IMG/VR virus record: IMGVR_UViG_2534681649_000009 | Direction: 5' to 3' (one strand) | DNA length: 18,757 bases | Source: a virus | Lineage: Duplodnaviria; Heunggongvirae; Uroviricota; Caudoviricetes | Shown here: piece by piece, positions 15,001 to 18,757 of the stretch | How the letters are laid out: each line of letters opens with the position of its first letter | Position numbering within the stretch: position 1 is the stretch's first letter | Position numbers: made by a program

Positions 15001-18000
15001 AAAACGTAACAGTACCACGGTGGTGGTGAACACGCTGGCCTCAGAAAATCCGGATGAAGCCGGGCGTTACAGTATGGACGTTGAGTATGGTCAGTACAGC
15101 GTTATTCTGTTGGTGGAGGGATTCCCGCCGTCACATGCCGGGACTATCACCGTGTATGAAGATTCTCAACCCGGTACGCTGAATGATTTTCTCGGTGCCA
15201 TGACTGAGGATGATGCCCGTCCGGAGGCACTGCGTCGCTTTGAACTGATGGTGGAAGAGGTGGTGCGTAACGCAGAGGAGGCGAAGAAGAATGCCGGAGA
15301 GGCGGAGACGTCAGCGAGGAATGCCGGCATATCAGCCAGTCAGGCAGAAGAGAGCGCTGCAAATGCTGACACTTCAGCAGGGGATGCATCGGAGTCAGCC
15401 CGGCAGGCGGCAGAAAGTGCAGCCTCAGCAAAGCAGTCAGAGGAGGCGTCCTCGTCCTCGGCCTCTGCGGCCGCTCAAAAAGCCAGTGAGTCATTACAAA
15501 GTGCAACAGATGCTGAGTTGTCAAAAAAGACGGCAGAAAGTGCAGCCGGTAATGCAGTCAGGGATGCAACGACCGCAACAGAAAAAGCCCGGGAGTCAGC
15601 AGAAAGCGCACAGTCAGCGGAACAAAGCAGGATAGCGGCGGAAGAGGCCGTAAACCGAATCCCCACCGTGGTGGGACCTCCCGGGCCAAAGGGGGAACCG
15701 GGGCCCGCGGGTCCTCAGGGGCCGAAGGGAGATAAAGGAGAGCGTGGCGACACCGGCCCGGCAGGGGCCAAAAGGTGACAAAGGCGATCCGGGAGTGGCT
15801 GGACCAGCAGGTCCGGCAGGTGCGCCGGGGCCGAAAGGCGATAAAGGTGATCCGGGAGTAGCAGGTCCAGCAGGTCCGGCGGGGCCACAGGGACCGAAGG
15901 GAGACACAGGAGCCCCCGGGCAAGGAACAGAACTGCTTACTACTGCCAATACATGGACTCAGGCACAAACTTTTAATGGTGGTATTAATGGCAATTTGAC
16001 GGTGACCGGAAACGGCTCATTTAACGATATTCAGATCCGTTCGGATAAACGCAACAAGCGAAATCTGGTAAAACTGGATAATGCGTTAGATCGTCTGGAG
16101 GCACTTACTGGTTATCTTTACGAGATACAGTACTCTGCCGACGGTTGGCAAACGTCGGTTGGTTTAATTGCTCAGGATGCACAAAAAGCATTGCCTGAAC
16201 TGGTAACTGAAGACGCAGACGTTATATCTGGTGAAAAACGTCTGCGTCTTAACTACAACGGCATAATTGCATTGTTAGTCGAGGGCTTTAAAACACTTCG
16301 TCATGAGATTAAAGAACTCCGGGAGAAGTAAACGACAGCTGTTGTAGTTTCTGGTTTCTACTGAATTTAAATTGTGGGGTGACACTCACCCCACGCATTC
16401 AGAAGGGGGAGATGAGATGGGGGTAACATCGGGATGGGTAGGCTCTTCGGCTAAGAGCGAAACAGGTGAGCAGTGGATGGGAGCCGCCGGAACCAAACTG
16501 GGACTGAGTAAACCTTTTATGATGAGCCAAATGGTTGGGCGAACTATGGGCTGTAAAATTGCAACTGAGTACTATAAATGGAAATCCTCTGACAAGGTTG
16601 ATAACTGGGGCGCAGTTGGCGCTGACTGGCCTTTAGAAGAAAAAAGTAAAGGTACAATTACAAACGCCGCAAGCTGCGGATCAGGGAGGCTGGTAGGGGC
16701 TGTCGTTACACTTTCTCACTTTTTGACGAACTCTACACCGACAGCTGCTGTTTATTTAGCCGGTGGTAAAGCAGGTAACATCACCGTAAACGTAGGTGGT
16801 GCTACACAAACCATGATTTATCAGGGCGTTGTTAGTGGGTTCCAGTATTACTGGTCAGGTTCTGTTAGTTCCGCTTTCGTGGAGGCAATGAAAAAGACGG
16901 GAGTACCCCAGGATCTAAAAATTAGTTAAATGGTAAATAAATAATTTTAAAAACTTCACGTTCTACATACCGGAGACGCCGGATATATAGGATATTGTTT
17001 TAAGTTGCCAGAGAAATTTTTCCGGACGGATGCTGATAATAATGATGTGCCAATGACGGCAGCATCATGGATGGCACTGAGTGAAGCGACAGAGCAGGCG
17101 ATGTTTGCGAAGGGAGTGGAGATTAATACACGGCAGTTGCAGATGAAAGCCGAGGTTGAGGCGCTGACAGACCTGAAGGCGATCCGCAGTTATGTTGTCG
17201 GATGGCCTGCTGGCTGAATAAAAAAACGGGACCACGACCAGTCCCGGAACCATGAGTTTTAGGGTATTAGTTTGTTATCATAGTTAGCGTGCTAAGTATG
17301 CCATGTCAGGTTGATTAGTGAAGTGATGTTGTTCGCATTTTTGCACGGCGGAGAATATTCAGATTTTTGGAAATCCATATTTTTCCCGTGCGCGATTACA
17401 TGCTTCATTTACGATGCTATTTTCGCCGGACATTGCGAATTCCCTGCATGTGGACGGTTTTTGTAAACAGAGCAATATGCGTTTTCTCCGGGGGGGCCGG
17501 CAAGAGCGCCACATCGGGGATTTTTCTGATTGGTGCCGCGCATACAGCGATGAAAAGGAGATATTTGCTCAGTGAGACTGACCGAAACCTTTCCGCCAGC
17601 ATCGTCAGCTTCTGCCCAGTAAAAAGAGACGCGGAAAATGCACAACAGGCACCACACGTCATGCATGGATTCAGATTGCTCATAATTCACAAGTACAGCT
17701 ATAAATCGTAAAGAGAACAGCGGTACATCGTATGTAAGAACGTACCGCGGCTGGCTGGTGAACTTCCGATAGTGCGAGTATTGAATGATTTCCAGCCGTT
17801 ACCGATTTTACGTGCTAATTAGTGAACAAACCACTCGTCAGCAGACTCCCAGGTATCTTTCAGAGTTTCCTGAACAAAAGTTTTAGCTGAATCTTTATCG
17901 GCGGTGCGCGTAACAGAAAGGCCATCGTTGCTGGTAGCTTTTACGATCACCTCTACATCGTCATAACGTTTACTGATGCGTCGGGTTAATTCTTCCTTTA

Positions 18001-18757
18001 ACGCATCCACAGCACCGGTTGGCATTTTAGTCATTTTTTCTTTGGCTATGCAGATTTCAATACGCATAAAAGTCCCTCTACACTGTGTTTGTATACAGTA
18101 TTATTTTTAACTGTATGGATAAACAGTATTAAGGGTGAAGGAAAGTGATTTTTTGGGGCATGCATGGGGCAAAAATATTTGTTGTGGGGCATTTTGGGGC
18201 ATGATTGGGACACTTTGTTACATATGAACTTTGCCGATTTTTATATGACATGGAAATACAACGCTTTGATTCTTCTAAATAAAAAACATGCTCTTGGGCG
18301 TTCTTTAGTGATTTTTAAAAATTCCGTATCACGCAGTTAAAGTGGCGGGCATACTCTTCAAGGCTGGTGATCCCCAACCGCACCCATTTAGGATGCGACC
18401 ATTGCGGTAGACCGATGTAAATCATAACGCGTGAAGGATCTCTTCCACGCTACGCACACGGGCGATGCGCGGGTAGATATGATTAATGCTGTTATTGTGT
18501 TGCTCGGCGCTGGCGGCACTACAGGCGTCTTCGGCAATCACCAGATTAAAGCCAAGTTCCCAGGCATTGCGGGCGGTGGATTCAACACCGATATTGGTCG
18601 AGATCCCACATAACACTATTGTATCGATACCTCGGCGGCGCAGTTGCAACTCCAGATCCGTACCGTAAAACGCACCCCACTGACGTTTGATGATTTCGAT
18701 ATCACTGTCAGTTGCACCTAATGCAGCTGGATGTTGCCACCAGTTTTCGGGCAACAC

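Follow-up and report, generated by a model that had tools for sequence, protein, structure and literature searches.

LexA control of prophage dinI homologues has already been published. In the Gifsy prophages of Salmonella these genes were found by experiment to be LexA-controlled and induced by DNA damage (Lemire et al. 2011, PMC3121763), and for the Gifsy-1 and Gifsy-2 homologues the induction by DNA damage was 14- to 23-fold (PMC8072944). In the prophages Gifsy-1, -2, and -3 the dinI homologue belongs to an operon in which it is followed by an antirepressor gene, which triggers prophage induction, and by irsA. An array study in Escherichia coli saw a dinI-like gene, c0943, change along with sulA, umuD, recN, and dinI (PMC2817434). 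Here we describe a dinI-like gene cassette in the IMG/VR virus record IMGVR_UViG_2534681649_000009, a stretch of 18,757 nucleotides (nt) that was analysed at its full length and is called the window below. A lambdoid prophage that is integrated in yecE is represented in the window by its late (tail) region and its right end. Upstream of the dinI-like gene there are two predicted LexA operators (SOS boxes), one of which fills the spacer between the -35 and -10 hexamers of the promoter. We consider it likely that a sigma-70 promoter with two LexA operators, the DinI-like gene, a hairpin, and a decayed ykgJ-like gene make up a self-contained accessory cassette (moron) at the right-hand end of this yecE prophage.

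The cassette itself is already known. In phage VT1-Sakai (AP000400, sequenced in 2000) it consists of a dinI gene (H0001) and a ykgJ-like gene (H0002), and the record marks a promoter, TTGACA-17-TAAAAA, as "putative promoter of H0001 and H0002 genes" as well as a "putative SOS box", which corresponds to the proximal box of the window. The VT1-Sakai and window cassettes are the same in the gene (92-100% protein identity), in the promoter, and in the position of the proximal box, and in VT1-Sakai, too, the ykgJ-like gene lies downstream and the cassette stands at the prophage end beside tail-fibre genes. The record of phage mEp460 likewise marks a promoter directly upstream of the same gene. Identical copies of the cassette are found in mEp460, the cdtI phage, SKA5, and many Shiga toxin (Stx) phages.

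The pattern CTGT-N8-ACAG occurs exactly twice in the window, at 18083-18098 (CTGTGTTTGTATACAG) and 18111-18126 (CTGTATGGATAAACAG). The chance expectation for the window is 0.27 sites, and two or more sites were found in 4 out of 200 shuffles. A first-pass annotation of the window had named these two operators at exactly these coordinates and placed them 16 and 44 base pairs (bp) upstream of the gene, in agreement with the measured distances, since the box cores end 15 nt (proximal) and 43 nt (distal) before the ATG. It had also asked whether the sites would score above background on a LexA weight matrix, and they do. Both strands of the window were scanned with a heterology index (HI) matrix made from 18 E. 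coli LexA sites (PMC3009722, Table 4). Among 37,476 20-mers, with a mean HI of 37.5, the distal box (4.67, the best in the window) and the proximal box (4.94) ranked first and second, and the next distinct site scored 9.9. The 18 proven sites from which the matrix was made score 0.3-9.3 on it (recA 5.2, lexA 4.9, sulA 4.2); with leave-one-out scoring the range is 0.6-12.6. Both window boxes have an HI inside the range of the proven sites and close to the values for recA, lexA, and sulA, and are thus predicted to be strong LexA operators. A weaker third LexA-like 20-mer, CACCGGCTAAATAAACAGCA, was seen at 16746-16765 on the minus strand (HI 9.9), within an open reading frame (ORF) of the tail-fibre region (16372-16929). 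It has no CTGT arm and is probably a chance match.

The promoter and the gene are made up of the following features, in the order in which they are transcribed:

18127-18132, minus strand: -35 hexamer TTAATA, placed from the promoter annotation of homologues (VT1-Sakai, mEp460) and from the start of homology between contexts
18109-18128, minus strand: distal LexA box, core 18111-18126; the 20-mer read on the gene strand (18128 to 18109) is TACTGTTTATCCATACAGTT; HI 4.67, arms conserved in relatives
18103-18108, minus strand: -10 hexamer AAAAAT, after an 18-nt spacer; invariant in 33 of 34 unique variants
18081-18100, minus strand: proximal LexA box, core 18083-18098; the 20-mer read on the gene strand (18100 to 18081) is TACTGTATACAAACACAGTG; HI 4.94, homologous to the "putative SOS box" of VT1-Sakai
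18073-18079, minus strand: ribosome-binding site AGAGGGA, 5 nt before the ATG, from direct reading of the sequence
17819-18067, minus strand: intact gene for a DinI-like protein of 82 amino acids (Pfam PF06183, match to PDB 1GHH)

The sequence upstream of the dinI-like ORF, read 5' to 3' on the minus strand, is cccTTAATACTGTTTATCCATACAGTTAAAAATAATACTGTATACAAACACAGTGtAGAGGGActtttATG. The promoter was assigned from the annotated promoters of VT1-Sakai and mEp460 and from conservation in an alignment of 34 unique promoter variants. These variants came from viral contigs and phage records; a scan of genome contigs gave four loci only, all near-identical. Hardly any variation is seen in the TTGACA hexamer, in the CTG and ACAG arms of either box, in AAAAAT, or in the ribosome-binding site, of which the GAGGG part (18074-18078, 6 nt before the ATG) is GAGGG or GGAGG in relatives. 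The box interiors, the segment between the boxes, the 5' untranslated region (UTR), and the T preceding AAAAAT are variable. A clade related to Citrobacter rodentium phage phiNP has AAATAT or TAAAAT at the -10 position. Because AAAAAT is near-invariant, the T before it varies, and the phiNP-like hexamer is at the same position, the best reading of the promoter is a -35 hexamer, an 18-nt spacer, and AAAAAT as the -10. The distal box then occupies the entire spacer and reaches over the final two bases of the -35, while the proximal box starts 2 nt past the -10 and covers the predicted transcription start and the early 5' UTR. The 8-nt gap between the boxes, whose centres are 28 bp apart, holds the -10, which would thus lie between two LexA dimers. 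In this position the boxes would occlude the promoter and the transcription start, as is expected of a member of the LexA regulon, given the promoter assigned from annotated homologues and conservation.

Most E. coli SOS genes have one LexA box, and there can be up to three (PMC3159453). The host gene dinI (b1061), which is strongly SOS-induced, resembles the window locus in its fold family, its conserved acidic C-terminal helix, and its LexA regulation, which is predicted for the window, but its only LexA box overlaps the -10 (TTGTCA-17-TATAAA) and its spacer contains none. Two or more LexA boxes share a promoter in lexA, recN, and the colicin genes, and the window promoter is like them in this respect. 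There, neighbouring boxes directly adjoin or overlap one another and their centres are separated by about 15-22 bp, whereas in the window the centres are 28 bp apart with the -10 between them, and in the relatives of the window cassette the spacing is 26-29 bp. The Gifsy dinI homologues differ from the window gene. They encode proteins of 77 amino acids with 42% identity to the window protein and belong to a different clade, and they have only one box, a very strong one (HI 1.9) that is located 21 nt from the ATG. They are located in the early-right region after a terminator, unlike the window cassette, which also has no antirepressor gene of the Gifsy kind. VT1-Sakai differs from the window in details of the promoter and in its site. 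Only one SOS box is annotated in VT1-Sakai, its two boxes score HI 8.5 and 9.5 with a spacing of 29 bp, and the phage is integrated at yehV, while the window copy has stronger boxes, a 28-bp spacing, a degenerate -35, and yecE as its site.

Of 5,426 complete E. coli genomes searched, 1,793 carry the promoter-plus-gene segment, in as many as seven copies per genome, and the cassette is also present in many Stx1-, Stx2a-, Stx2c-, and Stx2d-converting phages. Every E. coli homologue of 82 or 86 amino acids that was examined, down to 60% protein identity (P-EibC, BP-4795, PhiR12_2, 1720a-02), has the layout with two boxes. The sequences upstream of the layout represent at least five unrelated contexts, between which homology breaks off at the -35. 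Dual boxes are also present in a clade of 81-amino-acid proteins, whose closest cultured member is phiNP, and there the sequences are different, CTGT-N8-CCAG twice. The proximal box is conserved in all dual-box relatives, and the CTG and ACAG arms of the distal box are near-invariant in the 34 variants. Single boxes were found in the Klebsiella P18-100 group, in the 77-amino-acid Gifsy/mEp237 clade, and in host dinI. The Gifsy/mEp237 clade has the gene in the early-right region, and the next gene downstream is a small ORF, which is the antirepressor gene in Gifsy (PMC3121763).

The window protein matches Pfam PF06183 over all 63 profile positions (1-63) with an E-value of 1.1e-19 and 70.9 bits (cut-off 24.2). 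Its residues 1-81 align with residues 1-79 of E. coli DinI (PDB 1GHH; E-value 3.7e-13), so that it is, as expected for the family, a single domain of about 80 amino acids that aligns end to end with DinI. Five of the six acidic residues of the DinI C-terminal helix are kept: E67, D71, E74, D77, and E78 correspond to DinI E65, E69, E72, D75, and D76, and only the terminal E81 of DinI is absent. This acidic helix of DinI is reported to mimic DNA on RecA binding (Voloshin et al. 2001, as cited in PMC3121763). Against the NCBIfam DinI equivalog model NF007893 the window protein scored 73 bits, which is under the curated cut-off of 111. By this cut-off the protein is no equivalog of host DinI, and its correct name is DinI-like, as in RefSeq ("DinI-like family protein"). 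It is 100% identical to the proteins of phages mEp460, SKA5, and PhiR40_1 and 98.8% identical to that of the cdtI phage. The first-pass annotation had called the gene a "divergent DinI paralogue". Membership in the DinI-like family held up, but none of the neighbours is divergent from the gene, which converges with the tail-fibre genes and points from the prophage end towards the interior.

These data show two high-scoring LexA-type operators, maintained in evolution, on either side of the -10 of the one plausible promoter of an intact gene of the DinI family, and from them it can be outlined how such a promoter might work. In an undamaged cell, LexA dimers would occupy both sites and exclude RNA polymerase. 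After damage, RecA filaments would bring about LexA self-cleavage, both sites would become empty, and the DinI-like protein would be made. Operator-bound LexA is shielded from RecA-stimulated cleavage, and thus operator occupancy sets the timing of induction (PMC3159453). Since both operators would have to clear, tight repression and an onset at a higher or later SOS level than in single-box genes are predicted. The tighter repression by two boxes that the first-pass annotation predicted is a reasonable expectation. Once made, the DinI-like protein would bind RecA filaments through its acidic C-terminal helix and modulate RecA co-protease activity, as its homology to DinI suggests.

Several observations weigh against a tight switch with two working operators. 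The two boxes of the VT1-Sakai/BP-4795 subgroup are far less strong (HI 8.5-9.6), and the distal one (HI 9.5-10.6) reads CTGG...ACAG or CTGG...ACAA. This degenerate distal site, the single SOS box marked in the VT1-Sakai record, and the fact that the Klebsiella P18-100 group, the Gifsy/mEp237 clade, and host dinI work with one box would all fit an SOS gene of the usual kind with one box, which is what the annotators of VT1-Sakai took it to be, and in which only the proximal box works and the distal site is a promoter spacer or a relic. We regard this as unlikely for the window, where the distal box has a better HI than the proximal one (4.67 vs 4.94). Moreover, the CTG and ACAG arms of the distal box hardly change while its interior varies, and the phiNP-like clade keeps a distal box with a different interior, which is unexpected for a neutral spacer. 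The spacing also argues for caution, because box centres 26-29 bp apart in different clades and relatives mean that cooperative binding cannot be assumed. Since the spacing drifts in this way, which argues against phase-dependent cooperativity, the constraint looks like one of promoter geometry and not of helical phasing. Furthermore, the -35 of the window copy is TTAATA and its promoter was missed by a generic scan, so that output may be low even when the promoter is derepressed. No direct LexA-binding or expression data on the E. coli cassette were found in the open-access literature. As for the protein, non-polar deletions of dinI in Gifsy-1 and Gifsy-3 did not significantly change induction (PMC3121763), and its role is unproven. 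The two-operator moron remains the reading that we prefer.

The generic promoter scan of the window did not call the dinI-like promoter, which was recovered only through homologues with TTGACA; this fits the degenerate -35. Relatives mostly have TTGACA, but TTGATA, TTAACA, and TTGGCA occur too, including in close relatives in the same flanking context. It was also observed that the -35 is polymorphic among otherwise near-identical copies (TTGACA, TTGATA, TTAATA, TTAACA, TTGGCA), and that the distal LexA 20-mer begins with the final two bases of this hexamer. TA at these two positions gives a better HI (4.7, compared with 5.8) but a weaker -35, which suggests a possible trade-off between LexA score and -35 strength.

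The TTAATA hexamer in place of TTGACA might instead be a sign that the window cassette is a decaying, silent remnant, whose boxes were inherited but are no part of a working switch. The ykgJ-like partner, which is broken by at least two frameshifts, and the adjoining tail-fibre gene, which is annotated as incomplete in the closest complete genome, point in the same direction. Nevertheless, silence seems quite improbable to us. The dinI-like ORF is intact, and plaque-forming phages, mEp460 for example, encode a protein 100% identical to its product; neither box has changed, nor has the -10 or the ribosome-binding site; and TTAATA agrees with TTGACA at four of six positions. The ykgJ frameshift is common to many relatives and is thus old, giving no sign of recent decay here. 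Two features were identified in the downstream part of the cassette:

17710-17748, minus strand: terminator-like hairpin, GCGGUACGUU-loop-GAUGUACCGC (17720-17748), with a U-rich tail, from minimum free energy and centroid folds
17359-17683, minus strand: remnant of the ykgJ-like gene, the second cassette gene in relatives; a pseudogene with ORF fragments in three frames

The hairpin stem of 10 pairs is present in both the minimum free energy fold and the centroid fold, and a generic terminator scan of the window did not call a hairpin 3' of the dinI-like gene. By eye, a different GC-rich inverted repeat is seen at the same position in VT1-Sakai and PhiR49_2. The hairpin sequence differs between phages while the inverted repeat stays GC-rich (GCGGTACG...CGTACCGC-type in the window, GCAGCACGT...ACGTGCTGC in PhiR49_2), which would fit compensatory change within a terminator. 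RefSeq marks the homologue of the ykgJ-like gene in an O104:H4 strain, the closest complete genome, as a frameshifted YkgJ-family pseudogene. The first frameshift, just past the N-terminal CxxCxxCC motif, is common to most relatives. A poly-C tract at 17490-17496 is C7 in the window and varies in length in relatives, giving products of 86-110 amino acids. An intact version of 109 amino acids was found in few loci only, such as L153. The window fragments had no match in a Pfam search because the frames are broken, and no NCBIfam model matched an intact relative.

This arrangement bears on a further reading, an induction module like those of Gifsy or phage 186 (Tum), where an operon under LexA control supplies the antirepressor by which the prophage is switched on. 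Phage 186 Tum has a DinI-like half (PMC3121763), and an antirepressor sequence would be expected to be fused to the DinI-like sequence or to follow it directly. In the window, an antirepressor ORF was sought in the 135-nt gap after the dinI-like gene, and no same-strand ORF of at least 30 amino acids was found; the terminator-like hairpin stands there instead, and the next gene is the YkgJ-family remnant and not a GfoA/GftA-like gene. The cassette is located beside attR or int, outside the early-right region. Genes of the Gifsy type make up a clade of their own, with proteins of 77 amino acids, a single box, and different downstream genes. In the Gifsy-type loci (Gifsy-1, mEp237, Klebsiella ST846, Aeromonas pAEv1818) dinI is followed by a small "hypothetical protein" ORF, which by analogy with PMC3121763 would be an antirepressor. 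The next gene encodes a DUF1367 protein in ST846 and pAEv1818, a NinB/Orf protein in mEp237, and a conserved hypothetical protein in Gifsy-1. An induction module of this type is thus extremely unlikely here. A Gifsy-type module with the ykgJ-like gene as the "irsA" partner was also considered and rejected, as the Gifsy-type loci are a separate 77-amino-acid, one-box clade. The weakest claim of the first-pass annotation was that the DinI-like protein affects induction of this or other prophages. It is speculative, since the dinI deletions in Gifsy-1 and Gifsy-3 showed no significant effect and no antirepressor gene is present here.

We return to the self-contained moron and its position at the prophage end. 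The cassette has its own promoter, a terminator-like hairpin, and a homology edge at the -35, and it is located between the tail-fibre genes and attR or int, all of which are expected of a moron. Two features lie beyond the promoter:

18151-18212, no strand assigned: (T)GGGGCA(T), four to five copies (direct-repeat families D1 and D2), outside the dinI cassette
18329-18330, no strand assigned: prophage/host junction (attR) inside yecE, from blastn against K-12

In the blastn comparison with K-12, window positions 18330-18757 aligned as host sequence at 97% identity. Of yecE no more than the first 96 nt remain, and yecD then runs to the window end. yecE is known as an integration site of Stx phages (compare the record names PPyecE and Stx2_12E129_yecE). 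The (T)TGGGGCAT copies are located between the dinI promoter and the prophage end, the nearest about 23 bp from the distal LexA box. On the opposite strand the motif reads ATGCCCC, which is repeated beside the att site of VT1-Sakai, and BP-4795 has four tandem ATGCCCCATTG units. From these patterns, the repeats are likely candidates for integrase arm-type sites. A different context is found in mEp460 and 1720a-02, where the cassette is directly downstream of the integrase gene in the same orientation. There the -35 is only a few bases beyond the int stop codon, and no att site is possible between int and dinI. By sequence comparison, the cassette is therefore placed in at least two different end architectures. 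The tail-fibre region of the window (14918-16929, plus strand), after a Lom-like ORF, is split into several medium-sized ORFs. The closest complete genome has an incomplete tail-fibre pseudogene and a DUF4376 protein there, and because of this annotation the host prophage of the window may be defective.

We looked for an annotation of the distal box in the records examined and for a description of it in the open-access literature, and none was found. Only the distal box, and hence the position of the -10 between two operators, appears to be un-annotated, which is a modest refinement of a known element. The window copy adds little by itself, as the cassette is present in a third of complete E. 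coli genomes and the annotation of its promoter and of one SOS box dates from 2000. The useful increment is that the promoter spacer itself is a second conserved, high-scoring LexA box, which could be taken up in genome annotation and in predictions of the SOS regulon of pathogenic E. coli. A bolder proposal, which we regard as doubtful, is that LexA dimers bracketing the -10 are a conserved, undescribed design of Escherichia and Citrobacter prophages with a high SOS threshold, and that a burst of DinI-like protein from multiple copies tunes RecA, Stx-phage induction, and mutagenesis. If this were true, a late SOS burst from up to seven copies, for example in O157:H7, could measurably damp or prolong RecA co-protease activity. 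If DinI-like proteins from multiple copies do alter RecA activity, the cassette would have a bearing on antibiotic-triggered induction of Shiga-toxin phages.

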